Shown: positions 8,702-27,034 of the stretch, piece by piece
Numbering within the stretch: the first letter of the stretch is position 1
Layout of the letters: every line of letters starts with the position of its first letter
IMG/VR virus record: IMGVR_UViG_2534681663_000013
Span: 1-38,045 of that record
Length of the DNA: 38,045 nucleotides
Direction: 5' to 3' (one strand)
DNA from: a virus
Lineage: Duplodnaviria; Heunggongvirae; Uroviricota; Caudoviricetes
Made by a program: the position numbers and the translations under genes
Notes under the pieces: model-generated
Database searches by the model: none
What the model saw: only the letters and a program-made list of their open reading frames with translations
Told to the model about the DNA's origin: nothing

Positions 8702-8706
8702 TAAAG

Positions 8707-8731
8707 AAAAACCCGCCATTTGGCGGGTTTT
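8707..8731. terminator. Rho-independent terminator (bidirectional hairpin AAAACCCGCCA-TTT-GGCGGGTTTT)
   Basis: Perfect GC-rich stem flanked by A and T runs, between convergent genes dnaE and 8730-9290. Confidence 0.75.
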
Positions 8732-9290
8732 ATGCGCAAATTTTTTCGCAGTCTTGCGAGTGACTGAGTGAGCGAGTAACTCTCTCCACCTCATGAATGT
8801 CGCCCAACGATCTTATACGCAGGGCAAGATTCCACGTACTCAATGTGCGCGCGTTACGCACCAGTTCTTCCCGTGCTTTTTCGTCTTTGCTGTCAAGACG
8901 ACCGCAGTCGTTCAACCATTTAGCGACTTCCGCCCAGTCCCAGAGTGGAGACTGACCGCTGATACGCTGAACAGGGCAAGGAAAATCACCTTTGCCACGT
9001 AATCCGTCTTTAAGCAGAGTAATAGCCTGGCGCGTTAAGCCAGAGAGTTGAGCAATATCGCTCAAGCCTACCAGTGCTGAATCTACCGATTCCACCACTG
9101 CGCCAATGCCTGCTGTTTCAATATCAAGGATTGCCGATTCGATTGCTTCATCTAAAGATTTAGCTTCTCGATCAAATTCTACATACACTGAGTTTCCGTA
9201 GTAGCAAATGAGCGCATCATCGCAACCGTGGCTATACAGAGCATCTGCGACTACGCAGTACTGACTACAGGTTATCAGAATTATCCCCAT
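8730..9290 (-). CDS. Hypothetical protein with predicted HTH segment (LSDIAQLSGLTRQAITLL)
   Basis: 186-aa ORF convergent with dnaE. No confident family assignment. Confidence 0.45.
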   Translation of the reverse strand: MGIILITCSQYCVVADALYSHGCDDALICYYGNSVYVEFDREAKSLDEAIESAILDIETAGIGAVVESVDSALVGLSDIAQLSGLTRQAITLLKDGLRGKGDFPCPVQRISGQSPLWDWAEVAKWLNDCGRLDSKDEKAREELVRNARTLSTWNLALRIRSLGDIHEVERVTRSLSHSQDCEKICA

Positions 9291-9357
9291 TTACATCAGC
9301 TTACCTACGTCAGCCCTCAAGTTCTTCAGCAAGCCAGCTCCACCGCCTGATTCCAAC

Positions 9358-9831
9358 ATGATAAAATTGATATACGAAAATAAGTATACAGATAACATTA
9401 TGAGCACCGATATCTACGAAAAAATCATGTCCGATCTGGAGTTCGACCGCGACAATCTGGAGGAAGTCTGGCGTCAGCAACCGCGTCTGTTGATGGAGTA
9501 TGGCTCTAAGCTGGCACGGGCAGAACGTGAGGTTGCAGATGCAAAACTCTCTCTCGACGCGATCGAGGCAAAAATCTATGACAACGAGCGTAAGAGATTG
9601 AGTATGAATGGAATTAAGTTTAATGAATCCGTACTGGAAGCGAAGGTTAGAACCAACCCGCAATACCTCGCAAAGCGCCAGAAACTCGACGATGCTCGAC
9701 ACATTGCAGACCTGTACAAGCACGCTGTAGCCGCCTTCTCCCACCGCCGCGATATGATTGTCCAGGCGTCGAAGATGGCTATCGTAGAGATAGAGCGTCT
9801 GGGGGCCGAACGATTCCATTTACCCCGTTAA
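9358..9831 (+). CDS. Hypothetical protein (start may be the ATG at 9400)
   Basis: Long ORF with charged coiled-coil-like composition. Start codon uncertain. Confidence 0.5.
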   Translation: MIKLIYENKYTDNIMSTDIYEKIMSDLEFDRDNLEEVWRQQPRLLMEYGSKLARAEREVADAKLSLDAIEAKIYDNERKRLSMNGIKFNESVLEAKVRTNPQYLAKRQKLDDARHIADLYKHAVAAFSHRRDMIVQASKMAIVEIERLGAERFHLPR

Positions 9832-9950
9832 TTTATGCTAGATAGTAAGTAAGTACTGATCTATCATTCTTCTCGCTCGAAAGAGCCACGAACAAACGAA
9901 CGCCCAATGCGCATAGCGCCAATGGCCACAATCACAACAAGGAGAAATAC

Positions 9951-10190
9951 ATGTCTAAGTCATTACTTGATCTGCTTAACAAGACCCGTGGCGATATTGC
10001 TTCCAAACGTGGCAATAACATTGATTTGACCCGTCTGAAAGATGGCAATAACTATCTGCGCATTTTTCCGAACAAGGACGAGCAGGTCGTGAAGATCATC
10101 GCTCGCGTCGCCAAACACCTGAACCACGACGCAATCAAGTTTGACGAAGCCGCTGCTTCGAAGCGAATCAACGAATCAAAAGGAGCCTAA
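9951..10190 (+). CDS. Hypothetical 79-aa protein immediately upstream of recA
   Basis: Good RBS (AAGGAGAAATAC-ATG). Its 3' end carries the recA RBS. Confidence 0.55.
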   Translation: MSKSLLDLLNKTRGDIASKRGNNIDLTRLKDGNNYLRIFPNKDEQVVKIIARVAKHLNHDAIKFDEAAASKRINESKGA

Positions 10191-10192
10191 TC

Positions 10193-12532
10193 ATGGCAAA
10201 AGGCAAATCCGCACTGGCACTGGCGCTGAAAAAGAAAATCGGCAGCAATGACGAGATTCAGAAGGTCTCCCACTGGATTGACTCCGGTTTCCCTCCACTG
10301 AACAAAGCCATTTCCGGACGTTACGACGGTGGTTTTCCGTGTGGGCGTATCGTTGAAGTCTTCGGGCCACCAAGCGCGGGGAAATGTGTTACCGCAGACA
10401 CCATGCTGCTGACGGAGCGTGGAATGGTAACAGTGAAAGAACTGTTTGAGATTGAGGGGCACAAAGCAACATGCACTACTCGCGATGTAGAGCATAACGT
10501 TGGACTCATCAATGAAAATGGCGTGATAGAGAAGACCTCACACCTGACATGGAACAACCGTCGCAAATTCAAGCGCATTAAGCTGGCATCAGGGGGTTAC
10601 ATCGAGGCTACGTTCCGTCACCCAATTCGTGTGGTTGACGACTTAGGCAATATCGTCTGGCGGTATGCTGAAAAAATCAGTGTAGGCGACACGATTCCTT
10701 CAATGGTTGGCACACATCAATTCGGCGATCAGCACTTGGATGCCAATATCGCAAAACTGATGGGCTATTTAATTGCTGACGGATACGTGGCCTCTGAAAA
10801 TTCTGTGCATGTTTCTAACACAGATCCATTCATCAAGGATGAGTACTACCGCCTCATTTCGCTGGTATCAGACAAGATGCCAGTTACGAGAAAACATAAC
10901 GGCTCGGAAGACCATGTGCTGTTTAGCAAAGAGGGGCGTTCGCTGCTTTTTAAAGAATATGGTCTGGAGTATGAGAAAGCTGCTGGCAAGCAGGTTCCGT
11001 TGAGTGTGCGTCGCGCCAATAGCGAGGCTCAAATTGCATTCCTTCGCGGCTACTTTGAGCTGGAATGCCACGTCAATGATGGTCGCTGCATTGAGGTTGT
11101 GAGCGCGAGTGGGCTGCTGCTACAGCAAATTCGCCTCATGCTCCTGAATCTGGGGATTACGTCAACTATCTCTGAAAAACACGTCGCAGGTTATAAAAAC
11201 ATATATTACCGGCTGTCATTCAGTGGCTCTAACTACGACCTTTTCCTGTCAACGATTGGGTTCGAGTCTCCGGCTCGTTTAGCAGTGGCAACCAAACGGG
11301 ACATTAGTTTTGACCGCACTTATTTAGGCTACGTTCCGCACATCAGCGGCTTAGTGAAATCACTCTACGAGTCACTCACCAAGACCTCTCGTAAAGACTA
11401 CGTTCTGGTAGATCACGTTATTGGCCGCGGCGATCGTGTCGGAATAGACAAACTGCGAGAAATCTATGTCTCCTTCATTGGCAGAAAGAATCGTTTTAAC
11501 GAGCATCTGTTTGCACAACTGGCAGCGGTAATTGACTCTAACTTGTTCTACGACGAAGTCGTGGCTATTGAGGAAGGTGAAGCACCAACGTTCGACGTAG
11601 CGATGCCGGAAACACACTCTTTCTGGTCTAACGGGATTATCAGCCACAACACATTCCTCGCGACGGCTGCGATGGTGTCAGCACAAAAACAGGATGGGCT
11701 GGCCGTATTCCTTGACCACGAAAACAGTTTCGACGTTGGTCTGGCGGTAGCGAACGGACTGAACGCCGACGAAGACGACGGTCAGTGGGTCTACAAACAG
11801 CCGGATACCTTCGAAGACTCCGTAGAGCTGATCGGCACAATCCTCAAGCTGGTGCGCGACGAAGAGCTTATTCCGGAAACAGCCCCTATCTGCATCGTAG
11901 CCGACTCTCTGGCGTCGAGGGTTCCGAACTCGAAGGCTGAGAAGTTCGACAAGATGGCAGAAGGCACTGCGAAGGACAAAGATCAGCTGAACATGAACGA
12001 CAACACGGAGCTGGCGCGCGCGACAAGTGCGAACTTCCCTACTCTGGCGCTTTGGGCGCGTAAGTACAACGCGTGCATCATCTTCTTGAACCAGGTGCGT
12101 ACCAAAATTGGTGTGATGTTTGGCGATCCGACTACGTCTCCGGGTGGCGACTCTCCGAAGTTCTACGCGTCGGTGCGCATCCGTCTGGGTGCATCCGTCA
12201 TGAAGGATGGCAAAGAGAAGATCGGACAGGACGTTGGCGCCGAGTGCATTAAAAACAAAGTCGCGCCTCCGTTTGGCAAATGCTCATGGAAATTCTACTT
12301 CGACCCGACTCGCGGGCTGGACGTCGTCGAGTCTCTGGTTGAATACATGCTGGAGGAAGGATACCTGCCCAAGAGCGCCAGCGGGCGTGTGGAAATTGGC
12401 GAGAAGAAATACACCAAATCACAGATCGTCGAGATGTATCGGGAGAAGCCATTAGCTGAAATCATTGCTGCGTTACAGGCAATAGATGACAGGCGCGAGA
12501 AGACATCACCGACAGATGAATTAGAAGATTAA
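10193..12532 (+). CDS. recA: RecA/UvsX-family recombinase precursor containing an intein
   Basis: N-extein ends GPPSAGK, C-extein starts TFLATAAMV and continues with a RecA-like core. The exteins sum to ~357 aa. Confidence 0.85.
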   Translation: MAKGKSALALALKKKIGSNDEIQKVSHWIDSGFPPLNKAISGRYDGGFPCGRIVEVFGPPSAGKCVTADTMLLTERGMVTVKELFEIEGHKATCTTRDVEHNVGLINENGVIEKTSHLTWNNRRKFKRIKLASGGYIEATFRHPIRVVDDLGNIVWRYAEKISVGDTIPSMVGTHQFGDQHLDANIAKLMGYLIADGYVASENSVHVSNTDPFIKDEYYRLISLVSDKMPVTRKHNGSEDHVLFSKEGRSLLFKEYGLEYEKAAGKQVPLSVRRANSEAQIAFLRGYFELECHVNDGRCIEVVSASGLLLQQIRLMLLNLGITSTISEKHVAGYKNIYYRLSFSGSNYDLFLSTIGFESPARLAVATKRDISFDRTYLGYVPHISGLVKSLYESLTKTSRKDYVLVDHVIGRGDRVGIDKLREIYVSFIGRKNRFNEHLFAQLAAVIDSNLFYDEVVAIEEGEAPTFDVAMPETHSFWSNGIISHNTFLATAAMVSAQKQDGLAVFLDHENSFDVGLAVANGLNADEDDGQWVYKQPDTFEDSVELIGTILKLVRDEELIPETAPICIVADSLASRVPNSKAEKFDKMAEGTAKDKDQLNMNDNTELARATSANFPTLALWARKYNACIIFLNQVRTKIGVMFGDPTTSPGGDSPKFYASVRIRLGASVMKDGKEKIGQDVGAECIKNKVAPPFGKCSWKFYFDPTRGLDVVESLVEYMLEEGYLPKSASGRVEIGEKKYTKSQIVEMYREKPLAEIIAALQAIDDRREKTSPTDELED
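10385..11650 (+). other. Intein (422 aa) with LAGLIDADG homing-endonuclease domain, inserted between Lys and Thr of the RecA Walker A motif
   Basis: Begins with Cys (CVTADTML), TxxH block (ATFRHP), LAGLIDADG blocks (LMGYLIADGYV, LRGYFELECHV), ends ...GIISHN followed by Thr. Confidence 0.8.
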
Positions 12533-12538
12533 TTTTCA

Positions 12539-12562
12539 GGCGTCCGAATGGACGCCTTTATA
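12539..12562 (+). terminator. Rho-independent terminator after recA (GGCGTCCGAATGGACGCC + TTTAT)
   Basis: Perfect 7-bp stem hairpin followed by a T-rich tract. Confidence 0.6.
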
Positions 12563-12622
12563 CCTTGAAAATATATAAGCACTTACTTACCATCTACACA
12601 CAATAGCCACATAGGAAAACAC

Positions 12623-12823
12623 ATGATCAAACTCTATCTGATGGCAGTGGCTACAGGTATATCTGTAGTTTTCATCTACTGTTTGCTGGTTCCGTCGCTG
12701 ATCTCGGCTAAAAGCGATATTGCCGTAATGCTTGGAATCATTGTTGCTTTTGGCGCTCCTGTTATCGGCTTTAATGTTGGTCGTAACTTTCTGAAGTCAC
12801 TAATTAATTCGAAGGGGAAGTAA
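12623..12823 (+). CDS. Small hydrophobic (2-TM) membrane protein
   Basis: 66 aa with two hydrophobic stretches. RBS AGGAAAACAC-ATG. Confidence 0.5.
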   Translation: MIKLYLMAVATGISVVFIYCLLVPSLISAKSDIAVMLGIIVAFGAPVIGFNVGRNFLKSLINSKGK

Positions 12824-12826
12824 GTA

Positions 12827-13018
12827 ATGAAGAAAGGTTTACTGGCAGTGATCGTGGCTGCTGTTTGCACAATGGGTCTTACAGGCTGCGATCGTGTTGA
12901 GCCTGGGTACGTTGGCATCAAAGTAAACAAATTGGGTGAAGACAAAGGTATCGGTGAAGTTGTCGGCGTTGGCCGTCAGTGGACTGGTCTGAATACCGAG
13001 CTGTACACCTCTCTTTAA
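12827..13018 (+). CDS. Small lipoprotein (signal peptide + lipobox LTGC); possibly a 3'-truncated gene
   Basis: MKKGLLAVIVAAVCTMGLTGC signal peptide and lipobox. The ORF ends at the edge of the low-GC island. Confidence 0.5.
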   Translation: MKKGLLAVIVAAVCTMGLTGCDRVEPGYVGIKVNKLGEDKGIGEVVGVGRQWTGLNTELYTSL

Positions 13019-13046
13019 GTCATCTTAAATGACTCTGAGGTGTCTG

Positions 13047-13088
13047 TTAAACCTGTGGCGATTCAGTCTATTAAACCTGTGGCGATTC
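13047..13088. repeat. Direct repeat 2 x TAAACCTGTGGCGATTCA separated by 6 bp
   Basis: Two 18-bp copies at 13047-13064 and 13071-13088, at the left edge of the R-M island upstream of hsdM. Confidence 0.7.
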
Positions 13089-13250
13089 ACTTTATGGTGT
13101 CATAAACTTAAATCTAGCGCCGGGTAGAACAAGTTAATCGAACGATGTAGCGGCCATTTAGGCGTTACAGAAAGAACAGAATTTTAAATTTATAGTGAAG
13201 CCGTTGCAGCAACTTTGTGGGGTGCAACCAACACTGAACAGGAAAAGAAA

Positions 13251-15680
13251 ATGGATCATAGTGTACATAACAAGCTCATCTCATTTATATGGAACATTGC
13301 CGACGACTGTTTACGTGATGTGTACGTTCGCGGTAAGTACCGCGATGTGATTTTACCTATGGTGGTATTACGACGTTTAGATACGTTACTTGAACCCACC
13401 AAAGAAGCCGTGCTTGAAGAGGTCAAGTTCCAAAAAGAAGAGATGCAAGCCACGGAGCTTGATGATGAACCATTGAAGGCGGCTAGTGGTTATGTTTTTT
13501 ACAATACATCTAAATGGACCCTGAAATCCCTGTTCAATACCGCAACGAATAACCAACAGATATTACTCGCCAACTTTGAAGAGTACCTGCTTGGCTTTAG
13601 CGATAATGTTAAAGAAATCATTGAATGCTTTAACCTCAAGTCGCAAATTCGTCACATGGCCTCAAAGCAAGTCCTTCTTGATGTCGTCGAAAAGTTTGTT
13701 TCCCCTTACATCAACTTAACTCATGAAACGGTCGAAGACCCAGATGGCAACAAGATGCCAGCCCTTACTAACCTGGGTATGGGGTACGTGTTCGAAGAGT
13801 TGATCCGTAAGTTCAACGAGGAGAATAACGAAGAAGCCGGTGAGCACTTTACACCTAGGGAAGTGATTGAGCTGATGACACACTTGGTTTTTGACCCAGT
13901 GAAAGAGCAGCTACCATTGACCATGACCGTTTACGACCCTGCGTGTGGTAGCGGTGGTATGCTCACTGAATCTCAAAACTTCATTGAAGAGAAATACCCG
14001 AACGACAGCCGAGATATTTACCTTTACGGCAAAGAGATCAATGACGAGACCTACGCGATTTGTAAATCGGACATGATGATCAAAGGTAACAACCCTGAGA
14101 ACATCAAGGTAGGCTCAACCTTGTCTACCGACGAGTTTGCGGCTTCACGCTTTGACTTTATGTTGTCTACCCCGCCATACGGTAAGAGTTGGGCGTCTGA
14201 ACAGAAGTACATTAAAGACGGCAGTGATGTGATTGACCCGCGTTTTAAGGTTAGCCTGAAAGACTATTGGGGAAATCTCGAAGTGGTGGATGCCACGCCA
14301 CGTTCGAGTGATGGCCAGCTGCTTTTCTTAATGGAAATGGTCAACAAGATGAAAGATCCGAGCGTAAGTCCATTAGGCAGCCGGATTGCCTCTGTTCATA
14401 ACGGCTCATCGCTCTTTACCGGTGATGCGGGCGGTGGCGAAAGTAATATTCGTCGCTTCATCATTGAAAACGACATGCTAGATGCCATCGTTCAGTTACC
14501 TAATAACCTGTTCTATAACACTGGCATTACCACTTACATTTGGGTGTTGAGCAACAATAAACCTGAGGCGCGTAAAGGTAAGGTGCAATTAATTGATGCC
14601 AGCTTGCTCTACCGTAAGTTGCGCAAGAACTTAGGTAACAAAAACTGCGAATTTGCGCCTGAGCACATCACGGAAATTACCGATACTTACCTCGCGTGTA
14701 AGGATGTTGAAAGAGCACTGGATGCAAACAATGATCCTGTTGGCATCGCCAGTAAGGTATTCAGCAATGACGATTTTGGCTACTACAAAGTCACTATCGA
14801 GCGCCCAGATCGCCGCAAAGCCAAGTTTACTCAAGATGCCATAGCCCCACTGCGTTTTGATAAGCAACTTAGTGAAGTGATGGAGTACGTGTACGCAGAG
14901 CACGGCGAACGTGTTTACGAAAAAACTGGCTACGGGTCAGATCAGAAAAAGAGCTTCTTAAAATCCATCGAGAAAGACATTATTTCTTGGTGTGAAGATA
15001 ACGACATCAGTCTCAATGCTAAGGCTAAGGCCAAACTGCTTGATGTGAAACACTGGCTGGCGCTAAAAGCATTGCTTGAAACTGCACAAACGCTGATGGC
15101 TGACATCGGTAGCATTGAATTTGATGACTTCAATAGCTTTAAAACCCAAGTTGATAAATCGCTAAAAGCCCATGCTATTAAGCTTTCAGCACCTGAGAAA
15201 AATGCCATTCTTCACGCGGTGAGCTGGTATGACGAAACCGCCAAGAAAGTGGTTAAAAAGGTAGTTAAATTAACAGGTGATAAATTAAACGACCTGCTGG
15301 AGCGCTATGAGTGTGAAGTCGCTGACTTGCCAGATTTTGGTTATTACCCCGTTCCTTCAGCAGAAGGCGGTAAAAAAGGCGAGTATATCACTTACGAGAC
15401 CAATTCAGACCTGCGAGATACAGAATCTGTTCCATTAAAGCAAAGCATTTACCAGTACTTCCTAGATGAAGTGAAGCCTCATGTCGATGAAGCATGGATA
15501 AACCTAGATACGGTAAAAATTGGCTATGAAATCAGCTTCAATAAGTATTTCTACCGTCATAAACCGCTGCGTAGTTTAGAAGAGGTCACAACCGACATTA
15601 TCAACCTAGAACAAAAAGCCGAAGGTCTTATTGCGCAGATATTGGGTGTGAACGTGACGGAAGTTCAGGGAGAAGCCTAA
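13251..15680 (+). CDS. hsdM: Type I restriction-modification methyltransferase subunit HsdM (long form, ~810 aa)
   Basis: AdoMet motif YDPACGSGGML, catalytic TPPYG motif, and the conserved HsdM C-terminal segment (LPNNLFYNTGITTYIWVL). Start taken as ATG 13251 with RBS AGGAAAAGAAA. Confidence 0.85.
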   Translation: MDHSVHNKLISFIWNIADDCLRDVYVRGKYRDVILPMVVLRRLDTLLEPTKEAVLEEVKFQKEEMQATELDDEPLKAASGYVFYNTSKWTLKSLFNTATNNQQILLANFEEYLLGFSDNVKEIIECFNLKSQIRHMASKQVLLDVVEKFVSPYINLTHETVEDPDGNKMPALTNLGMGYVFEELIRKFNEENNEEAGEHFTPREVIELMTHLVFDPVKEQLPLTMTVYDPACGSGGMLTESQNFIEEKYPNDSRDIYLYGKEINDETYAICKSDMMIKGNNPENIKVGSTLSTDEFAASRFDFMLSTPPYGKSWASEQKYIKDGSDVIDPRFKVSLKDYWGNLEVVDATPRSSDGQLLFLMEMVNKMKDPSVSPLGSRIASVHNGSSLFTGDAGGGESNIRRFIIENDMLDAIVQLPNNLFYNTGITTYIWVLSNNKPEARKGKVQLIDASLLYRKLRKNLGNKNCEFAPEHITEITDTYLACKDVERALDANNDPVGIASKVFSNDDFGYYKVTIERPDRRKAKFTQDAIAPLRFDKQLSEVMEYVYAEHGERVYEKTGYGSDQKKSFLKSIEKDIISWCEDNDISLNAKAKAKLLDVKHWLALKALLETAQTLMADIGSIEFDDFNSFKTQVDKSLKAHAIKLSAPEKNAILHAVSWYDETAKKVVKKVVKLTGDKLNDLLERYECEVADLPDFGYYPVPSAEGGKKGEYITYETNSDLRDTESVPLKQSIYQYFLDEVKPHVDEAWINLDTVKIGYEISFNKYFYRHKPLRSLEEVTTDIINLEQKAEGLIAQILGVNVTEVQGEA

Positions 15681-16987
15681 TGGAAAGTTTAGCTTTGATG
15701 CCGAAGTATGAGGCTTATAAAGATTCTCAGGTTCAATGGATAGGTGATATACCAGCCAACTGGCATCTGGAAAAGGCTAAGTGGCTGTTTTATAAAGCAG
15801 ATAGAAAGCCTCTCGTTGATGATGATATCGTCACTTGTTTCCGAGATGGGCAAGTTACGTTGAGAAAAAACAGAAGGACTGAGGGGTTTACTAATGCTTT
15901 AAAAGAGCATGGTTATCAGCGTATTTGTAAAGGGGACTTAGTTATCCATGCAATGGATGCCTTTGCAGGAGCGATAGGTGTCTCTGATTCTGATGGAAAA
16001 TCAACACCAGTATATGCAGCATGCGTCCCAAGAAAGATAGGCAAAGTTAATTCATATTATTATGCCTACTATATGCGTGATTTGGCTCTGTCAGGCTTCA
16101 TTGTGTCGCTTGCGAAAGGAATTAGAGAGCGCTCAACAGATTTTCGGTTTAATGATTTTGCAGAATTATTATTACCGTTTCCGGATTATGAAGAGCAAAC
16201 CCTAATAGCCAACTTCCTCGACAAGAAAACCGCTCTAATCGACGAAGCGATTTCGATCAAAGAGCAGCAAATTAGCCTGCTGAAAGAGCGTAAGCAGATC
16301 ATCATCCAACAGGCGGTGACCCAAGGGCTTGATCCCAATGTGCCAATGAAAGACTCCGGTGTGGATTGGATTGGTAAGATTCCAGCGCATTGGGATATTG
16401 TGCCAGGATTTACAGTATTTAAAGAGGGAAAAGACTCGAACAAAGGGATGATTGAATCACAAGTTTTATCTCTCAGTTATGGAAATGTTATTATAAAACC
16501 AGAGGAGAAATTGGTTGGGCTTGTACCTGAGTCTTTTGAAACGTATCAAATAGCTTTACCTGGCGACATCATAATACGTTGTACAGACTTGCAAAATGAC
16601 AAAACGAGCTTGAGAACGGGGATAGTGCGGAATAAAGGAATTATAACTAGTGCTTACCTTAACTTACGGTTGAAAACGGAACATTCAGCTGAATTTATGC
16701 ATTATTTTCTTCATGTATTAGATATAACTAAAACTATATATCGTTTTGGTTCTGGGCTGAGACAAAACTTGAGTTATAAAGATTTTAAGCATATGAGAAT
16801 ATTGATGCCTCCTAAAGCAGAGCAAATTGAAATAGTAAATTACATCAATAATCAAGTAGAAATGACTGAGTCATCTATTGATCTGATTAAAAATAAAATA
16901 GAAAAACTAAAAGAATATAAAACCACCCTGATCAACAGCGCCGTGACAGGAAAAATAAAAATCACCCCAGAAATGGTTGAGCAATAG
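15680..16987 (+). CDS. hsdS: Type I R-M specificity subunit HsdS (two target-recognition domains)
   Basis: Duplicated conserved HsdS segments (PDYEEQTLIANFLDKKTALIDEAI and PPKAEQIEIVNYINNQVE). Start overlaps the hsdM stop (TAATGG). Confidence 0.85.
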   Translation: MESLALMPKYEAYKDSQVQWIGDIPANWHLEKAKWLFYKADRKPLVDDDIVTCFRDGQVTLRKNRRTEGFTNALKEHGYQRICKGDLVIHAMDAFAGAIGVSDSDGKSTPVYAACVPRKIGKVNSYYYAYYMRDLALSGFIVSLAKGIRERSTDFRFNDFAELLLPFPDYEEQTLIANFLDKKTALIDEAISIKEQQISLLKERKQIIIQQAVTQGLDPNVPMKDSGVDWIGKIPAHWDIVPGFTVFKEGKDSNKGMIESQVLSLSYGNVIIKPEEKLVGLVPESFETYQIALPGDIIIRCTDLQNDKTSLRTGIVRNKGIITSAYLNLRLKTEHSAEFMHYFLHVLDITKTIYRFGSGLRQNLSYKDFKHMRILMPPKAEQIEIVNYINNQVEMTESSIDLIKNKIEKLKEYKTTLINSAVTGKIKITPEMVEQ

Positions 16988-16996
16988 GACGCGAAT

Positions 16997-18160
16997 ATGT
17001 TCACGGTAAATCATCAAACCAACAGGATTAGTCCTGTTAGGACAAAGAAGTTCAGTGAGTTGGGCTTTACTGAGCGCAAGCATCTTCAGGAGTGGTTGGC
17101 ACACGAACCTTCCGCATTGGGTGAAGAGTTGTTGATTATTCAAAAAGAGTTCGATGGCTTTGATGACACCCGTGAACGATTAGATTTACTGGCACTGGAT
17201 AAAGATGGCAACTTGGTCATTATTGAAAATAAGCTGGACGACAGTGGCCGAGATGTGGTGTGGCAGGCCCTTAAATATGCCTCTTACTGTGCCAGTTTAA
17301 CCAAAGCACAAATAGTTGACATTTACCAGCAGTACTTAGACCGCTATGAGCCTGTAACAGCAGAGGTTGACCTGTTAAATGCCCCTGCAAGTGCCTCAGC
17401 TAGAATATGTGAGTTTTTGGATGCGCCCGATCTGGATGAGTTAAAGCTCAACCTGGGTAACAGCCAGCGCATTATGTTAGTTGCGGCAAACTTTCGCAAA
17501 GAAGTGACCAGCACCGCGCTGTGGTTATTGGGTCAAGGAATTAGCATTGCCTGCTTCAAAATCACGCCTTATTCACTGGGTGAACAGCTACTGATTAATA
17601 TTGACCAGATCATCCCAACGCCGGAAGCGAAAGAGTTGATGATCGGCATTAATGCCAAGGAAGCGGAAGAAAAAACCACCGAAGTGGTACTAAAAAACCG
17701 CCATACGGTGCGGCGCGAATACTGGGAGCGTGCCTTAGAGGCGTTTCAGAAAAGCGCTTGCCAACTCTATAACAACATTAGCCCAAGCAAAGATCATTGG
17801 TTATCAGCAGGCTCAGGGTTAAGTGGGTGTCCGTATAACCTGATATTTCTGCAAAAAGAGCTTCGAGTAGAGCTTTGGATCAGCCGTGGGGTTACCGAAG
17901 AGAATAAATACCTTTTTGACTTGTTGAGTCAGTCCAAACAGGACATTGAACATACTTTTGGTGCAGAACTTGAGTGGATGAGGCTGGATGAGAAGAAATC
18001 TTGCCGTATTCAGTTTTCGACCAAAGCTGATGGGTTTAACAAAGATACGTGGCCCCAAGCGGTTGCGTGGCACTTAGAGCAGATGACAAAGTTAGAAAAA
18101 GCCTTAAAAGGACCGCTGCAAAAAGCGGCTGAGGCAATGAAACAGAAGAATTTTGATTAA
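16997..18160 (+). CDS. Hypothetical protein with N-terminal PD-(D/E)xK nuclease-like motif, embedded between hsdS and hsdR
   Basis: 387 aa. Motif ...RERLDLLALDKDGNLVIIENKLDD fits the D-x(n)-ExK pattern. Same strand and tight spacing with the hsd genes. Confidence 0.6.
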   Translation: MFTVNHQTNRISPVRTKKFSELGFTERKHLQEWLAHEPSALGEELLIIQKEFDGFDDTRERLDLLALDKDGNLVIIENKLDDSGRDVVWQALKYASYCASLTKAQIVDIYQQYLDRYEPVTAEVDLLNAPASASARICEFLDAPDLDELKLNLGNSQRIMLVAANFRKEVTSTALWLLGQGISIACFKITPYSLGEQLLINIDQIIPTPEAKELMIGINAKEAEEKTTEVVLKNRHTVRREYWERALEAFQKSACQLYNNISPSKDHWLSAGSGLSGCPYNLIFLQKELRVELWISRGVTEENKYLFDLLSQSKQDIEHTFGAELEWMRLDEKKSCRIQFSTKADGFNKDTWPQAVAWHLEQMTKLEKALKGPLQKAAEAMKQKNFD

Positions 18161-18174
18161 GGGAACTTACAATT

Positions 18175-21100
18175 ATGGTCAGTCAAACCAATGAACAAGC
18201 ATTAGAGTCGGCCATTGAGAAATGTCTGGCTGGGATCAGTACTGAAGAGCTCAAAGAGGGGCTGAGTCAGCAGTCACTGGGTGCTGGATACTTCATTGGT
18301 GCTGCTAGTGACTTTAATATGCAATATGCCATTGATGAACGTTTTTTCTGGCAATTTCTGCAAAAGACACAAGAAGTAGAGTTGGCCAAACTGCAAAAGA
18401 ACAACCCCTCAGATTGGCAGCGTAAGTTACTCGAACGATTTGACCGATTGATTAAGAAGCATGGCATTCTTCATTTACTTAAGAAAGGGCTAAGCGTAGA
18501 CGATGCTCACTTCAATTTGCTCTATCCAGCCCCTTTGGCAAGTAGTAGTGAGAAGGTAAAGCAAAACTTTGCAGATAACGTGTTTAGTTGTACTCGCCAA
18601 GTGCGCTATTCCATGGTAAATCCCCTACAAGAAATCGACATGGTATTGTTTATCAACGGAATACCCTTGATAACGCTGGAGTTGAAGAACGCATGGACCG
18701 GGCAAACAGCACGTTATCACGGCCAAAAGCAGTATCGAGATGATCGGGATGCAACTCAGCCATTGCTGACCTTTGGCCGCTGCCTAGTGCATATGGCGGT
18801 CGATACCGACGAAGTGTATATGACCACCAAGTTATCAGGTAGCAGTACATTCTTCTTGCCGTTCAATAAAGGTCACAATCTTGGACAAGGCAACCCGCCG
18901 AATCCATCTGGCCATAAAACGGCATACCTATGGCAAGAAGTATTCACTAAAGACAGCTTGGCGAATATTATTCAGCATTTTGTGCGTCTGGATGGGTCAA
19001 GCAAAGATCCATTACCAAAGCGAACCCTGTTCTTTCCTCGATACCATCAATTGGATGTGGTGAGAAAATTAGTAGACCATGCCGCCCAGCACGGTGTCGG
19101 TCAGACTTACTTAATTCAACACTCAGCCGGTTCAGGTAAGTCTAACTCGATTACCTGGGCAGCTTATCAGCTAATTGAAACCTATCCTGCTTCGTCTGAT
19201 GTGGCAGGCGGAAAAAGCTTGGAGCAGCCGTTGTTTGACTCTGTGATTGTGGTCACCGATAGACGCCTATTGGACAAGCAGCTGCGGGATAACATTAAAG
19301 AGTTTTCTGAAGTAAAGAACATTATTGCCCCAGCGAATAAGTCTTCTGAGCTTAAGCAGGCGCTGGAGAATGGCAAAAAGATTATTATAACGACGATTCA
19401 GAAATTCCCGTTCATTATTGATGGTATCACCGATCTTAGTGACAAGCGCTTTGCAGTGATCATCGATGAAGCACACAGCTCACAGTCTGGTTCGGCGCAT
19501 GACAATATGAACCGAGCGATGGGCAAGTCTGAAGTCGAAGAGGCAGAAGATGCTCAGGATAAAATCCTTCAGGCGATGAGATCGCGTAAGATGCGCGGGA
19601 ATGCGTCGTACCTGGCATTTACAGCGACACCAAAAAACAGCACTTTGGAGAAATTTGGTCAACGCCAAGAAGATGGCTCTTAAAAGCCGTTTCACTTGTA
19701 TTCGATGAAACAAGCCATTGAAGAAGGCTTCATCTTGGATGTGCTGGCAAATTATACGACGTACAAAAGTTATTATGAGATTGAGAAATCAATTGCTGAT
19801 AACCCTGAGTTTGATACCAAAAAGGCGCAGAAAAAACTCAGAGCTTATGTAGAACGAAGCCAGCAAACAATTGATATCAAGGCAGAGATTATGCTGGAGC
19901 ATTTTGTTCCGCATGTCGTGAATACGAAAAAGCTCAAAGGTAAAGGTAAAGGAATGGTGGTCACTCAAAATATTGAGGCGGCCATTCGATACTACAAAGC
20001 GATAAGGCGAATACTTGAGGAGCAAGGAAACCCGTTTAAAGTTGCCATTGCTTTCTCAGGAACCAAAGAAGTTGATGGTATTGAATATACCGAAGCAGAT
20101 ATTAATGGTTTTGCCGAGTCAGATACCAAAGATATGTTTGATACCGATGAGTATCGACTTTTAGTGGTTGCTAACAAGTATCTGACTGGGTTTGACCAGC
20201 CTAAGCTTTGCGCCATGTATGTAGATAAGAAGCTCGCCAGTGTCTTGTGTGTTCAGGCGCTATCTAGGCTCAATCGCAGTGCACCTAAGCTAGGGAAGAA
20301 AACAGAAGACTTGTTTATCCTGGATTTTTTCAACTCGGTTGAAGATATTCAATCAGCATTCGATCCTTTCTATACAGCAACGTCATTGTCCCAAGCTACA
20401 GATATAAACGTACTGCACGAGTTGAAAGATGAAATGGACGATGTCGGTGTGTACGAGTGGTATGAAGTTGAAGACTTTGTGACGCGTTATTTCAAGAATG
20501 AAGACGCCCAAACACTCAGTCCAATCATTGATATTGCCGCAGCGCGGTTTGACCATGAACTAGATCTTGAAGCTGAAGCTAAAGTGGACTTTAAGATTAA
20601 AGCCAAACAGTTCGTTAAAATCTATGGGCAGATGGCTTCTATCATGCCTTATGAAATGGTCAGCTGGGAAAAACTGTTTTGGTTCCTGAAGTTTTTAATA
20701 CCGAAATTGAAAGTGGAAGATCCCGATGCTGATGCTATTGATGAGCTTCTCGATTCTGTCGATCTGAGTTCATACGGTTTGCAACGTGTGAAGCTTAACC
20801 ACAGCATTAAACTTAGTGACCAAGAAGCGGAGCTTGATCCTCAAAATCCGAACCCACGTGGGGTGCATGGCGGTGAAAAAGAAACTGACCCGCTGGATGA
20901 AATCATTCGCACATTTAATGAGCGATGGTTCCAGGGCTGGAGTGCCACACCTGAAGAGCAAAAGGTTAAGTTCGTGAACATCGCTGAAAGTATCCGCAAT
21001 CACCCTGACTTCGAATCGAAATACAAAAACAACCCAGATCCCCATAATCGAGATTTGGCCTTCGAAAAAATGCTCAAGGAAATCATGCTGCAACGCCGTA

Positions 21101-21192
21101 AAGATGAACTTGAGCTCTACAAGTTGTTCGCAGGAGATTCAGCATTTAAAGCCTCGTGGACGCAAAGTATGCAACGAATGGTGGGTAGGTAG
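18175..21192 (+). pseudogene. hsdR: Type I R-M restriction subunit HsdR interrupted by an in-frame TAA at 19681-19683
   Basis: ORFs 18175-19683 and 19696-21192 share one frame. Helicase motifs I (SAGSGKSNS), II (IIDEAHSS) and III (FTATPKNS) lie before the stop, and the conserved segment KQAIEEGFILDV follows directly after it. Confidence 0.8.
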
Positions 21193-21584
21193 AAAGGAGT
21201 GATGGTTTGCTGAAGGCAGTCTCAGAGTTATTAGGTGGGTCACCAGGCCTGAAAGGACGTCAAATTGCCAAGGAGCTGGGGCTGGTCAGCTGTCAGCAGC
21301 CGACTCACCGGTATAAACGTGGTGGTCATGAACATGTTGCTATCCCTAACTACCTTGAACGGCAGTTCGCCGTGACCGAGCCAAATCAGGTGTGGTGCGG
21401 TGATGTGACCTATATCTGGACGGGTAAGCGCTGGGCGTACCTCGCCGTTGTTCTCGACCTGTTCGCAAGAAAACCAGTGGGCTGGGCCATGTCGTTCTCG
21501 CCGGACAGCAGGCTCACCATGAAAGCGCTGGAAATGGCATGGGAAACCCGTGGTAAGCCCGGCGGGGTGATGTTCCACAGCGAT
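21193..21584 (+). mobile_element. IS3-family (IS911-like) transposase OrfB remnant, truncated after the HSD of the DDE core
   Basis: Translation ...[65 protein letters not shown] matches IS911-type OrfB as recalled. Homology stops at ~21584, with no orfA or downstream orfB. Confidence 0.7.
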
Positions 21585-21589
21585 AGTAA

Positions 21590-23040
21590 TAATGCCGATG
21601 TCAGTCTTTACCACCACTTAGTTTGCCGTTTAACCAGATTGGTGTGATTACTGATGCAGTGAAGACCTTCCCGCATCCTGACTCACACAGCGATCGACCT
21701 TTTGTGTCCTGCCCTGGACCCGTCGGTTGCCGGAAGCGCCTTCATGCGAGGCATCTCCTCACCGATGCGCGTGACTCAAGAAGGGCCTGACGGCTTGTCT
21801 CGTTACTGTCCTGTCCGGGTTATCTGTCTGGAGATTCAACTCTGTTTCCTCACAGGAGCTCTGTCATGGTTGATAAAGTTACCGAAGCTGCCGTTGTGGG
21901 TGGCGTGGATACACATAAAGATTTGCACGTTGCCGCTGTCGTAGATCAGAACAATAAAGTCCTTGGGACTCAGTATTTCTCCACAACACGACAAGGTTAC
22001 CGGCAGATGCTGGCATGGATGACCTCGTTTGGGACATTAAAGCGAATTGGTGTTGAGTGCACAGGTACCTATGGTTCCGGTTTGCTTCGTTATTTTCAGA
22101 ACGCCGGGTTAGAAGTTCTTGAGGTGACTGCTCCAGACCGGATGGAGCGACGCAAACGGGGTAAAAGTGACACAATTGATGCTGAATGTGCCGCTCATGC
22201 AGCATTCTCAGGCATCAGGACAGTTACTCCCAAAACGCGTGATGGCATGATTGAGTCCCTGCGGGTATTAAAAACTTGCCGAAAAACAGCAATATCAGCC
22301 CGCAGAGTCGCTCTCCAGATTATCCATTCAAATATTATCTCTGCCCCGGATGAATTACGTGAACAGCTCAGAAATATGACGCGCATGCAGCTCATCAGGA
22401 CCCTGGGTTCCTGGAGACCTGATGCCAGTGAATACCGCAATGTAACCAACGTTTATCGCATTTCATTAAAGTCCCTTGCCCGACGCTATCTCGAGTTACA
22501 TGACGAAATCGCTGATCTGGATGTCATGATTGCGGCAATTGTCGACGAGTTGGCACCTGAGCTGATTAAACGTAATGCTATCGGATACGAAAGCGCTTCA
22601 CAGTTGCTGATCACTGCCGGAGACAATCCTCAACGGTTAAGATCAGAATCAGGATTTGCGGCACTGTGTGGTGTCAGCCCGGTCCCCGTTTCTTCTGGAA
22701 AAACGAACCGTTACCGACTTAATCGTGGTGGAGATCGTGCTGCAAATAGTGCACTTCACATCATCGCCATCGGACGCTTACGAACTGACGCAAAAACAAA
22801 GGAATATGTCGCCAGGCGTGTAGCCGAAGGACATACAAAAATGGAAGCGATACGCTGTCTAAAGCGATATATCTCCCGCGAAGTTTACACGTTACTGCGC
22901 AATCAAAACAGGCGGATCAACAGTATCCCGATAACAGCTTGACTCTTAGAAGGGCGTCCAGGGCAGTCATTAGGTTCGTTTACAACAAATCGGGTGATGT
23001 ATACGGCGTTCACGCGAAGAACGACAGCTACCTTTTCGAT
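21590..23040 (+). mobile_element. IS110-family insertion sequence (ends approximate)
   Basis: Single DEDD-type transposase gene with ~280 bp of non-coding sequence upstream and ~100 bp downstream. Boundaries inferred from where IS911 homology stops and the next gene starts. Confidence 0.55.
21866..22942 (+). CDS. IS110-family (DEDD) transposase
   Basis: N-terminal RuvC-like motif VVGGVDTHKDLHVAAVVD and the typical C-terminal IS110/IS116/IS902 transposase domain (...SESGFAALCGVSPVPVSSGKTNRYRLNRGGDRAANSALH...). Confidence 0.9.
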   Translation: MVDKVTEAAVVGGVDTHKDLHVAAVVDQNNKVLGTQYFSTTRQGYRQMLAWMTSFGTLKRIGVECTGTYGSGLLRYFQNAGLEVLEVTAPDRMERRKRGKSDTIDAECAAHAAFSGIRTVTPKTRDGMIESLRVLKTCRKTAISARRVALQIIHSNIISAPDELREQLRNMTRMQLIRTLGSWRPDASEYRNVTNVYRISLKSLARRYLELHDEIADLDVMIAAIVDELAPELIKRNAIGYESASQLLITAGDNPQRLRSESGFAALCGVSPVPVSSGKTNRYRLNRGGDRAANSALHIIAIGRLRTDAKTKEYVARRVAEGHTKMEAIRCLKRYISREVYTLLRNQNRRINSIPITA

Positions 23041-23057
23041 GACTGCAAGGAGGTTAG

Positions 23058-23273
23058 TTGATGGCGGTTACACTGACAGGTCTGGAAATCGAAAAAACAA
23101 GCGGCTACTGGCGTGCCAAAGGGTTCAAGCAGTCCGGCGTACTGGAACGACTGGAACGTGAAGATGGGTATATTGTCCACCAGCGACGTGAATGGCACAT
23201 GTACGATCCGGAAACAGGTAAGCTCGCAACGAAGGCCGGGACACTCTGGGGTCTGCTGAAGAAAATCCACTGA
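23058..23273 (+). CDS. Hypothetical 71-aa protein
   Basis: RBS AAGGAGG 7 nt upstream of the ATG. No family assignment. Confidence 0.45.
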   Translation: MMAVTLTGLEIEKTSGYWRAKGFKQSGVLERLEREDGYIVHQRREWHMYDPETGKLATKAGTLWGLLKKIH

Positions 23274-23280
23274 TAACACT

Positions 23281-23880
23281 ATCCACTGCGGTGAGTAGCC
23301 AGCTCACCGCGTGTGAATCCGGCTCATAACCACTGTAGCGAGTAGAACACCCTTCAGGTATGCACCCCAACCACTGTAGTGAGCAAACCCTCTGCCACGA
23401 TATCAACTATCCACTGTAGTGAGTAAATTGGTGATTATCGGGGTCGCTATACACTGTAGTGAGTAAACAGGCGTTCACTGACTACAAACAACCACTATAG
23501 AGAGTGATGGAATGCCCCCTCCAGCGGATATCCACTATGGAGAGTAAATCTTCGCTGTTTTAAACGGATATCCACTCACTACAGTGGATAGAGGTCAAGT
23601 CAGCCAATTCTGCTCTTCACAGTGGATAGTCAACAATGAGGAGAGCGACGATAACCGCTGTAGAGAGTAGACTTAACAGAGATACCCAGTGACCGCTAAC
23701 CTCTCAGCCCTTGTTTTATCTATGTTTGCAACCACTAACATTTACTTCGCGATTTGTGCGCACTGCCTACAGTGGTTATTCTTCGGTTTCTTTTACTCAC
23801 TACAGTGGATATTGCATTTCCGATAAACAAAAAGGCTCACTATCTACTGTAGTGAGCCTTTTTACTCTCTACAGTGGTTG
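23281..23880. repeat. Iteron array (~14 copies of a ~17-19 bp CCACTGTAGTGAGTA-like repeat, both orientations) downstream of repA; incA-like copy-control locus
   Basis: Reiterated degenerate repeats (atccactgtagtgagtaa, aaccactatagagagtga, tccactcactacagtggata, and others) with irregular spacing. Confidence 0.8.
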
Positions 23881-23882
23881 GG

Positions 23883-24938
23883 CTATTTGCGAGCCTTTGC
23901 CTTGCGCAGCTCTTCGAGAATCGCCAGTTCTTCCTTGCTCAACATGACCATTTCCCCGTCTTTTTCTTCAGGGGCAACATCGATAATGTCCTCCGGATCA
24001 TCACCTGGCAAGATATCTTCTGGCTCTTCAGGCGTAGCCATAGATGGCGGCAGTGCCGAACGTAACTTCGGCCGTCTATAGTGGATGACGAAGTAGACCG
24101 AGCTGCCGCGTTTCACTTCAGTGTAATCGAGATAGCCGATCTCTCGCAGCTGCTCCATCGCCTTCCTGACTGTCGCATTCTGGGTAATGGTGCGGCTGGT
24201 TAAGTTAAGTCTGGCGCGTAAGCGAGCCAATGAGATTGGCGCCGGGTCTGGTGGCAAACTTTCAATGAAGGTGTAGAGCGCCTGCGCGGATTCCTTTCTG
24301 GAGAGTTCGTTGATGGCCCGAAGTTGCAAAAGCACCTTTTTGTCGAACTGGTAAAGTTCGAAAATCTTAGGATCGGCCTTCAGTTCGACCGTGTCATTCT
24401 TGGTACTGTACTTTGCCGTCTGCACAAGGTGCGTAACGTAATACTCTTCAGAGCCTTTGCTGCGGAATGAGATGGTGTTTGTGGCGATACGACTTAGAGA
24501 GCTGTCCAGGCGCTTACGTAACTTCGCGGACGATCTGGCTGTTGGTATGCCACAAAGTCTGACGAACTCGACGAACGGCAACGTGACGGTGTCACCAACA
24601 ACCTTGTGCTTGGCGAACGCGTGGATGATGCCCACCCATGTTTTGAAATCGTTATCCATATCAAGACGAAGACCAGCAATCCTTATATCCTCGTACCCTT
24701 CGGCTTTGGCCAGAGACAGCTGTTTGAGTTCAGCGGAGGCGTCCATAGAGACCATTTGCCCCTTTCTACCCCTGGATGTCGATTTCAGCGTCGGAACGAA
24801 GAGACCAAGACGCATCAGAGCAACAGGCTGAACTGTGTTGTTGGTGTTAGGAACTAACGTAACAACTTCGCCGGTCTTTTTGTCTGTTTCGGAAAATGCT
24901 TCGCTTATCGCAATGTTTTTATTGTCGTTTACGCTCAT
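23883..24938 (-). CDS. repA: Plasmid replication initiator RepA (P1 RepA / RepFIB-like)
   Basis: Signature segments [51 protein letters not shown] and LYTFIESLP match P1-type RepA as recalled. Flanked by iterons. Confidence 0.9.
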
Positions 24939-24974
24939 TCCAAATGTCTCTTTTTATTCGACGGCTTGGGTGCC

Positions 24975-25105
24975 TTTACTGATTACAGTGGATAGTAGCA
25001 CCCATCACAGTGGTTATCCTACCGCCTACAGCGGTTTTTCTACTCTCCATAGTGGTTGATTTACTCTCTATAGTGGTTGTTCTTCTCACTATAGTGGATA
25101 TCGAT
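24975..25105. repeat. Origin-proximal iteron cluster (6 direct copies of CTMYAGTGGWTR-like repeat) immediately upstream of repA
   Basis: Same repeat family as 23281-23880, all in one orientation. Position matches the oriR/incC iterons of P1-type replicons. Confidence 0.8.
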
Positions 25106-25147
25106 AACCTCTAAAGCCATGTGGCACAACGGTTTGCAGGGGCCGGG

Positions 25148-25220
25148 GATCTCTTTGGGTCTTTGTGGTTCTCTTTGGTTCTAACAGGGATCTGAATTAC
25201 TGGATCGGGCCTGTGTATAA
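25148..25220. promoter_or_regulatory. Origin-like module 1: 3 GATC sites plus a DnaA-box match (TGTGTATAA, rc TTATACACA)
   Basis: GATC at 25148, 25189 and 25203. DnaA-box consensus TTATNCACA matched at 25212-25220. Confidence 0.5.
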
Positions 25221-25379
25221 AAATCAGATAATTACAAAATCAGGCATCACTCCCCTTCTGGGGATAATGTGTGATCGAAATAAACACGCCGCAACGCAAA
25301 ATTTACAATATTTCCAAGAATATCAGCCATCTGCCGCAGAAAAACAGGCTCGGAGTTATCCAGTTAAAACATTGTCTCC

Positions 25380-25495
25380 TACTCACTACAGTGGATACCG
25401 ACTACTCTCCAGAGAGGTTGTTTTGCTCTTCATAGCGGTTATTATGCTCTCTACAGTGGTTATTTTGCTCCCTATAGTGGATAGTAACCCCTTCT
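25380..25495. repeat. Third iteron cluster (about 5 copies)
   Basis: cactacagtggatac, cttcatagcggttatt, ctctacagtggttatt and cctatagtggatag, same family as the other two clusters. Confidence 0.75.
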
Positions 25496-25523
25496 CAAGC
25501 CAGTAACCGCAAGCGCTGGAGAC

Positions 25524-25595: not shown

Positions 25596-25680
25596 AGTGA
25601 ATAAGTAAACAGGCATTTGCAAACTCCGGTGCGCCTTATCCGTTATCGTTGCCCCGGACAAAATTATTTGAACAAGAATT

Positions 25681-27000: not shown

Positions 27001-27034
27001 TACGAAAAAGCAAGTTCGCGTTAACAGTGACGAT

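Follow-up and report, generated by a model that had tools for sequence, protein, structure and literature searches.

The stretch of DNA considered in the present work (38,045 nucleotides, IMG/VR virus record IMGVR_UViG_2534681663_000013, positions 1 to 38,045; hereafter the window) is assigned to an SSU5-group phage-plasmid of E. coli, and it contains, between positions 13006 and 22972, a region associated with insertion sequences (IS) whose core is a single operon, hsdM-hsdS-X-hsdR, composed of the three subunit genes of a Type I restriction-modification (R-M) system and of a fourth gene, here named X, for a putative nuclease. The reading put forward below, which taken as a whole we regard as probable, is that the region was horizontally acquired by an SSU5-like phage-plasmid, that its R-M system is most likely dead and that X is intact. 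In an intact Type I system, HsdM and HsdS (M2S) methylate a bipartite target set by the two recognition domains of HsdS, and M2S together with HsdR translocates DNA and cuts unmethylated incoming DNA. The operon of the window is composed as follows.

13251..15680, plus strand: hsdM of the long subfamily, 809 amino acids from the ATG at 13251, with Pfam, PADLOC and PDB matches
15680..16987, plus strand: hsdS, 435 amino acids, with two target-recognition domains (TRD1 and TRD2)
16997..18160, plus strand: X, 387 amino acids, with a NucS-like PD-(D/E)XK N-terminal domain and a DUF4268 C-terminal domain; intact
18175..21192, plus strand: hsdR, 1005 codons with an in-frame TAA at 19681-19683; Pfam HSDR_N, ResIII and T1R_D3-like domains

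Judged by gene content, domains and motifs, the locus belongs to the Type I family; two defining features of that family, methyltransferase motif IV and an intact HsdR, fail in this copy. In HsdM, Pfam recognizes HsdM_N (residues 10-149, E 7.6e-23) and N6_Mtase (residues 177-487, E 1.3e-58), and motif I is present as DPACGSG at residue 229, so that the protein has the methyltransferase domain of a Type I enzyme; motif IV, of general form (D/N/S)PP(Y/F), reads TPPY, the change of A to C at 14170 having turned codon 307 (14169-14171) into ACC (Asn307Thr). The family itself conforms to the motif: NPPY is found in all 6 close relatives and in 19 of the 19 distant homologues that cover the position, and none of the 60 E. 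coli genomes carrying the gene (5,426 complete genomes of the species were scanned) has the allele of the window. The first residue of this motif belongs to the catalytic site, and we infer that Asn307Thr is disabling for HsdM; in Type I methyltransferases, replacement of motif IV by APPA abolishes methylation (PMC5100572).

HsdR carries the motifs of a PD-(D/E)XK nuclease (D...ELK171) and of a superfamily 2 (SF2) helicase (GSGKS, DEAH, TATP), and it is encoded in the relatives as an intact protein of 1005 amino acids; here the change of C to A at 19683 converts Tyr503 into a stop, which falls after helicase motif III (TATP, residue 483) and ahead of the second RecA-like domain, and the copy no longer encodes the single intact HsdR polypeptide that is expected of a Type I system. 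Elsewhere codon 503 is TAC (five relatives) or TTC (the Vibrio copy), and in the 61-mer surrounding it all 58 E. coli genomes with the gene differ from the window, none of them having the A. Outside TRD1, the substitutions private to the window amount to 10, four of them synonymous, four conservative missense and the remaining two those just described; none lies in X. Because of the nonsense codon at Tyr503 of hsdR and of Asn307Thr in the catalytic motif of hsdM, the R-M system of this copy would most likely be an R-deficient, M-deficient remnant. An earlier reading of the window, made from its letters alone (the sequence-only reading), had described the island as defence cargo, which holds for the presence of acquired defence genes, but their R-M part is most likely non-functional here; it had overlooked the functional state of the R-M system, which is the most informative feature of this copy. 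The scores that fall below the NCBIfam cut-offs, both for hsdM (TIGR00497, 104.7 against 242.75) and for the two halves of hsdR (TIGR00348, 119.4 and 80.7 against 284.55), can be attributed to models built on classical subfamilies, from which the long-HsdM lineage is divergent.

The length of HsdM had been taken in the sequence-only reading (about 810 amino acids, above the classical size) as one of the signs of acquisition. The protein is indeed longer than the solved classical HsdM chains of the PDB (809 against 499-544 amino acids), but as a sign of acquisition its length does not serve, the subfamily being common and already modelled. Since the PADLOC MTase_I model PDLC03029 spans the whole protein (E 4.5e-267) and several further MTase_I models of PADLOC have lengths of 800-930 positions, the length can be regarded as a trait of a widespread, known subfamily and not as a peculiarity of the locus; the 322 amino acids that follow the catalytic domain have 859 database homologues, spread over several phyla. 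The extension is predicted by AlphaFold (predicted local distance difference test, pLDDT, 87.8; predicted template modelling score, pTM, 0.73) to comprise a bundle of helices and a mixed alpha/beta part and to close with a long helix, and for this extra module no relative of solved structure was found. The final helix may correspond to the HsdS-binding C-terminal helix of classical HsdM, and the net addition would therefore be of about 250-290 amino acids.

HsdS matches the PADLOC Specificity_I model over its full length (E 6e-102), with Pfam Methylase_S on TRD2, and has the two-TRD organization of the family; among the relatives TRD1 is variable, while the central and C-terminal regions are conserved. 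The TRD1 allele of the window (approximately 15728-16187) has no counterpart among the complete E. coli genomes; it is similar to TRD2 of the Vibrio gigantis HsdS. Five near-identical systems hold five different TRD1 alleles.

X, the fourth gene of the operon, encodes a protein in which DUF4268 (residues 238-372, E 1.4e-39) scores 135.7 bits against a Pfam cut-off of 27, and which matches the PADLOC model PDC-S11 (PDLC04913, E 7.9e-183) over residues 1-383; it is accordingly placed in PDC-S11, a phage-defence candidate of PADLOC, within a family that counts 5,527 representatives at 50% clustering. The catalytic residues are E26, E51, D63, E77-x-K79, Q90 and Y94, and across 53 sequences, down to 29% identity, E26, D63, K79, Q90 and Y94 never vary and E51 and E77 rarely do, in keeping with a PD-(D/E)XK nuclease. 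A search with the single sequence gave no relative of solved structure, and only the profile search reached NucS, with whose catalytic motif that of X is aligned; the AlphaFold model (pLDDT 94.6) is very confident. DUF4268 is a known accessory domain of the GmrSD Type IV enzymes (PMC4619093). Copies of the X protein from E. coli, many Vibrio species, Alteromonas, Salmonella, Morganella, Cellvibrio, Citrobacter, Edwardsiella and Providencia show 98-100% identity.

The genomic neighbourhood of X was surveyed by a profile scan of one genome per species, with Type I genes located by tblastn, which yielded 61 loci flanked on each side by 4 kb or more of sequence. The arrangement hsdM(long)-hsdS-X-hsdR is found in 14 of the 61; in 24 others X lies between an upstream hsdM of classical length (24-29% identity) and a downstream hsdR; 6 show other arrangements, and the remaining 17 have no Type I gene within 10 kb. 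Examples with classical-length HsdM are a Ruegeria locus (L064; HsdM of 535 amino acids, HsdS of 422, an open reading frame (ORF) with DUF6615, X, HsdR of 1027) and a Vibrio locus (L044; HsdM of 523, HsdS of 414, X of 382, HsdR of 1085), in both of which the coding regions overlap or are adjacent. Classical-length operons with X often hold such a further small gene, the DUF6615 gene of Ruegeria (L064, 9258-10001) lying between hsdS and X; in several others X and hsdR are about 440 bp apart. X is dispensable for long-HsdM systems, in which the space between hsdS and hsdR may instead contain nothing (L016), an ORF of 68 amino acids (L010-12), a Fic gene or a GmrSD pair; the last case is that of plasmid pLAO4 (L014, NZ_OP242218, 7055-10377), where DUF262 and DUF262-HNH (GmrSD-like) genes stand in the place of X and hsdM differs by 3 amino acids. 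X also occurs beyond Type I loci, in one case in a conjugative element and in another beside a Schlafen/AlbA_2 gene.

PrrC of the EcoprrI system is an anticodon nuclease held latent by the Type I enzyme. By analogy, X could be a functional partner of the Type I complex, that is, a latent nuclease held or regulated by HsdM, HsdS and HsdR and released under phage anti-restriction attack, an explanation that we consider rather unlikely. X does occupy the position of PrrC, with gaps of 9 and 14 nucleotides to its neighbours, and in 38 of the 61 loci, belonging to two lineages, it lies on the same strand between hsdM and hsdR, the stop codon of one gene overlapping the start codon of the next in L064 and L044; yet it is missing from many long-HsdM systems, its place being taken by a GmrSD-like pair in the sister plasmid pLAO4, and 17 of its loci are devoid of Type I genes within the distance given above. 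Moreover, DUF4268 nucleases protect as single cloned genes (PMC12366544), and unrelated defence genes are commonly embedded in Type I operons (PMC5100572). X is most likely an autonomous nuclease preferentially lodged in the hsdS-hsdR slot, which would act independently as an additional, modification-dependent, Type IV-like nuclease. That it is a dedicated Type I partner in the PrrC slot, controlled by the R-M complex or sensing it, appears improbable; if it were, X could be, for example, a back-up nuclease released by phage anti-restriction or aimed at modified DNA resistant to Type I cleavage, and it would be the only defence gene of the island still active, having stayed 100% conserved through the decay of hsdM and hsdR. 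X is near-identical (98-100%) across several genera, and its recurrence between hsdS and hsdR in Type I systems that are not related to one another is the thread most worth following for such a coupling.

A functional R-M system would require that the TAA and Asn307Thr be sequencing or assembly errors, or that they be tolerated, by residual methylation with Thr or by reassembly of the split HsdR, and this too seems unlikely. The scarcity of private substitutions outside TRD1 (10, four of them synonymous) is no signature of overall decay, hsdS and X are intact, and both disabling changes are of a single base and supported by one sequence; against this, the long ORFs of the backbone are uninterrupted (dnaE, 1168 amino acids; intein-containing RecA, 779), which argues that the assembly is not error-prone, Asn307 is invariant in the 6 close and the 19 distant homologues, and the stop of hsdR separates two motor domains, the downstream ORF beginning at TTG. 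In addition, an M-deficient and R-proficient system would be self-destructive, so that the two hits together make a coherent dead state. As to how such a state might arise, it may be speculated that a change of specificity would expose unmethylated chromosomal sites, that loss of hsdR would then be selected and that hsdM would be left free to decay.

On both sides of the operon the DNA is a mosaic of truncated genes and IS remnants, composed as follows.

12827..13005, plus strand: 5' remnant (codons 1-60) of an SPFH-domain lipoprotein gene, aligning up to 13005/13006 with the intact gene of 276 amino acids of plasmid NZ_CP081792 (L001)
13006..13089, minus strand: left end of a second IS3-family IS (terminal inverted repeat and leader), its outer 24 bp tandemly duplicated
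13090..13250, plus strand: native leader upstream of hsdM
21207..21285, plus strand: first 26 codons of a truncated helix-turn-helix (HTH)-ATPase gene, complete (361 amino acids) in the Vibrio copy
21286..21584, plus strand: internal orfB (rve) fragment of an IS911-like IS3-family element, with a Pfam rve match, fused directly to the HTH-ATPase remnant
21585..22958, plus strand: IS110-family element, transposase at 21866-22942, inserted within the IS911-like fragment
22959..22973, no strand assigned: 14-bp tail of the IS911-like orfB (22959-22972), then a deletion junction

Of the features that the sequence-only reading had recorded at the two edges, the abrupt end of the lipoprotein gene on the left and the IS911 remnant with an IS110-family IS on the right were both found as described. 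The lipoprotein gene keeps the first 60 of its codons, and the frame remains open for 63 codons (12827-13018), up to a stop (13016-13018) situated within foreign DNA. The direct repeat pair reported at 13047-13088, with a length of 18 bp, also exists and is non-random, but its unit is larger and its nature different: it is a tandem array of two 24-bp copies at 13042-13089 (13042-13065 and 13066-13089, one mismatch; Tandem Repeats Finder), with a core of 19 bp exactly repeated at 13047-13065 and 13071-13089 (0 of 100 shuffles gave two matches), and it represents a duplicated IS terminus and not a junction signature. Indeed, the sequence 13006-13065 is the first 60 bp of an IS3-family element, inverted, which stops 4 nucleotides before the ATG of orfA; this 60-bp end has 1,650 occurrences, spread over 1,195 of the 5,426 complete E. 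coli genomes, adjoining a truncated IS3-family orfA, whereas the duplicated 24-bp form is confined to 57 records whose match runs on into island sequence. No name for the element was obtained beyond 'IS3 family transposase'.

It is very improbable that the repeats at 13047-13089 are the junction of a site-specific integration (an att site, a transposon end with transposase-binding repeats or a target-site duplication) of a discrete R-M element. They are direct and lie exactly at the edge of the island in all of its E. coli copies, and the Vibrio copy of the island adjoins Tn7-like genes; one copy of the repeat is nonetheless the outer terminus of a common IS3-family element present at 1,650 places without the island, no further copy, direct or inverted, exists elsewhere in the window (up to 3 mismatches), the Vibrio homology begins only past the repeats, and the window has neither tns genes nor an integrase. 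Two assignments made for this sequence were rejected: that of the 19-bp repeats as Tn7-type transposase-binding sites, as they fall outside the Vibrio homology and coincide with the terminus of the common IS3-family element, and that of 13020-13067 as the right inverted repeat (IRR) of IS911, as in the E. coli EF5-18-41 chromosome (L009) the IS911 IRR ends just before that sequence.

Since the homology to the Vibrio copy (L004, blastn) begins at 13088, directly past the repeats, native island DNA would start at about 13090; on the other side the homology stops at 21285, so that the native island comprises 13090-21285. A scan of 12500-22000 for sigma-70 promoters and terminators gave 9 promoter-like sites against 16.7 in shuffled controls, with nothing convincing upstream of hsdM, and a search of the entire window against Rfam (gathering thresholds) returned no match, hence no known RNA element in the island. 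On the right, the orfB fragment is 98% identical to the orfB of the IS located upstream of hsdM on a 353-kb mcr-1 plasmid (L003) and in L009. The IS110-family transposase belongs to its family on the basis of Pfam DEDD_Tnp_IS110 and Transposase_20, both above cut-off, and of NCBIfam NF033542 (195.2 bits against a cut-off of 140); the element is polymorphic, being absent at that point from plasmids p1585m1_B (L002) and pEc1675 (L006) and present in pNT1F34-108k (L005). Its transposase is preceded by a non-coding leader of 281 bp (21585-21865) and corresponds to the NCBIfam name 'IS110 family RNA-guided transposase'; a guide (bridge) RNA would presumably be expected in this leader, in which Rfam recognizes no described RNA. 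After 22972, about 1.2 kb of backbone kept in pNT1F34-108k and pEc1675 is missing from the window.

That the R-M block is richer in AT than its surroundings, as noted by eye in the sequence-only reading, was confirmed by comparing the island (13090-21285) with the left (1-13005) and right (22971-38045) backbone in 500-bp windows (Mann-Whitney) and by codon usage. Guanine plus cytosine (GC) make up 0.435 of the island, as against 0.509 of the left backbone and 0.469 of the right one; the island is distinct both from the backbone as a whole (p=1.4e-5) and from its right part taken by itself (p=0.002). At third codon positions (GC3) the values are 0.46 for island genes and 0.55 for backbone genes, and synonymous codons differ between island and backbone with chi2=216 (df 41), the control comparison of left with right backbone giving 105, about half as much. 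The AT-richness of the island is real, the contrast is much stronger to the left than to the right, and the backbone is itself heterogeneous.

The junctions became exact by alignment with related plasmids. An uninterrupted site, with an intact SPFH gene and the small genes downstream of it, is present (at least 80% coverage) in 145 of them, while about 35 carry the R-M genes at the identical junction; compared with the uninterrupted site, 13006-22972 replaces approximately 2 kb, namely the remainder of the SPFH gene and three small genes. That the block was horizontally acquired, as the sequence-only reading had proposed, is supported by four independent lines of evidence: the uninterrupted sites, the occurrence of the block in unrelated contexts, its divergent composition and the IS remnants at both edges. 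The opposite view, that the island is ancestral to the plasmid family and was lost from the plasmids without it, is scarcely credible: loss does happen, as in p1585m1_B, but the island-free plasmids keep the intact SPFH gene and the downstream genes missing from the island-bearing ones, a precise restoration that deletion cannot achieve, and the composition of the block and its presence in unrelated replicons and genera do not fit it either.

Because the left junction is the same in all the island-bearing plasmids examined (p1585m1_B, pNT1F34-108k, pEc1675 and pLAO4), the data point to a single acquisition by the plasmid lineage followed by diversification, visible among the relatives as group II intron insertions in some, the IS110 insertion in some, the exchange of X for a GmrSD-like pair in pLAO4 and varied TRD1 alleles of HsdS. 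The block would have entered this lineage once, with IS3-family elements, replacing the 3' part of the SPFH gene and a neighbouring gene, and it would later have been eroded by truncation of the downstream ATPase gene, insertion of the IS110 element and a further deletion of 1.2 kb. In p1585m1_B (NZ_CP086388, about 5340-6270) only the first 1.1 kb of hsdM and an IS911-like fragment are left, most of the island having been deleted.

The block is a widely travelled module. Of the 5,426 complete E. coli genomes, 58 contain its hsdR (60 in the search with hsdM), on the chromosome in 38 cases and on a plasmid in 20, and the block is also carried by the mcr-1 plasmid mentioned above. On that plasmid and in the EF5-18-41 chromosome it lies between two direct copies of IS911, in a composite-transposon-like arrangement: a group II intron interrupts the left copy, whose IRR ends just before the equivalent of window position 13022 (abutting the island at L009:12002), and the right copy, interrupted by IS30, starts 40 bp past the equivalent of 21285 (its left inverted repeat, IRL, beginning at L009:20313). 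The intron (ltrA) within the IS911 upstream of the island occupies 8505-11995 of L009 and is likewise seen in several other chromosomal and plasmid copies. The window itself does not have the structure of a composite transposon, as it retains on the left an 84-bp end of an IS3-family element and on the right an internal IS911-like fragment; no target-site duplication and no complete flanking IS pair were identified in it. On plasmid p1 of Vibrio gigantis (L004) the operon is present at 92-95% identity, with a GC content of 0.44 against 0.436 in its surroundings; the block is thus compositionally at home in marine gammaproteobacteria, and we infer a Vibrio- or Alteromonas-like donor pool. In that plasmid (L004, 3715-21534) the operon lies downstream of Tn7-like tnsD and tnsE and of a WYL gene, with a DndB gene upstream, and is followed by genes for an HTH-ATPase, an HTH protein, and SAVED and nucleotidyltransferase proteins (CBASS-type).

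Some observations weigh against the reading preferred here, each on a different part of it. Both disabling changes are of a single base and occur in one sequence only, and sequencing or assembly error is possible; the presence of X in the hsdS-hsdR slot in 38 of 61 loci, and in two divergent Type I lineages, is more than would be expected of an opportunistic passenger and gives scope for a functional coupling; the right backbone is fairly AT-rich (GC 0.469), so that composition is weaker evidence on that side; and, with neither a target-site duplication nor a full IS pair, the mechanism of insertion is unreadable from this copy.

The backbone on which the island resides comprises, within the window, the following genes.

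5195-8701: dnaE, 1168 amino acids, intact
10193-12532, plus strand: RecA-like gene with an intein, 779 amino acids, frame intact
23883-24938, minus strand: repA

The part of the window from 24000 to 38045 is 86.7% identical to Salmonella phage SSU5 over 44% of its length, the right part of the window is about 90% identical to Escherichia phages Cyrano and PhiR41_1, and the nearest relatives are non-mobilizable IncFIB plasmids of about 110 kb; together with a plasmid replication function (repA with iterons), this similarity places the window among SSU5-like elements, an assignment that covers the window only, the phage structural genes being situated outside it. The iterons are probably two arrays of 21-bp repeats (25026-25097 and 25405-25480; 3.4 and 3.6 copies) located upstream of the minus-strand repA. 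The LAGLIDADG intein of the RecA-like gene sits in the P-loop (GPPSAGK|C...HN|T), Pfam Intein_splicing covering residues 73-486 and LAGLIDADG_3 residues 279-356 of the protein, and related plasmids annotate the same arrangement as 'LAGLIDADG family homing endonuclease'. Between 31000 and 32500 the GC skew is strongly negative (-0.20) and the AT skew reaches 0.30; this segment includes a 24-bp A/C-rich tandem repeat (32110-32171).

With regard to what was already known, all the components of the island have been modelled or reported before: the long HsdM in PADLOC, X as PDC-S11, the genes in dozens of RefSeq records, and R-M cargo in the SSU5 group. The island is thus a routine case of defence genes on a phage-plasmid shuffled by insertion sequences; what the locus documents is its exact junctions and a stepwise history, made of IS-associated entry, swap of a recognition domain, IS110 insertion, deletions and point inactivation. 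An annotation by gene content would count here a complete Type I system, as in the closest RefSeq relatives, yet both catalytic subunits are privately mutated; because they carry private disabling substitutions, counts of 'complete defence systems' on mobile elements may overstate function.

With the classical Type I systems (EcoKI, EcoR124I; HsdM2-HsdS-HsdR2) the locus shares the three subunit genes in one operon, HsdM_N and N6_Mtase, a two-TRD HsdS, the PD-(D/E)XK and SF2 motifs of HsdR and the shuffling of recognition domains among near-identical copies. With EcoprrI-PrrC (hsdM-hsdS-prrC-hsdR) it has in common an extra nuclease gene in the same slot, tight packing and recurrence across Type I lineages; the likeness is one of operon position alone, X having no ABC-ATPase or anticodon-nuclease domain (no Pfam, NCBIfam or PADLOC match). 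The closest description for the predicted activity of X is that of MdgA and MdgB, DUF4268 nucleases which as single genes defend E. coli against T4 but not T4-GT7, MdgA also against Mu, the MdgA-E77A variant being inactive (PMC12366544); X likewise combines DUF4268 with a nuclease domain and has a catalytic Glu at position 77, a match of numbers that may be coincidence in a comparison made by description (DUF4268, E77), and thus a lead only. From the Type IV enzymes of the GmrSD/BrxU type that are embedded in defence operons, X differs in having neither DUF262 nor a DUF1524/HNH domain. As to the carrier, R-M, PrrC, PD-T4-3 and PD-T7-5 have been reported on SSU5-group elements of E. coli and Shigella (bioRxiv 10.1101/2025.09.12.675607), and the window shows no essential difference from such phage-plasmids with defence or resistance cargo: it has the same SSU5-like backbone and holds one particular cargo, in a decayed state.

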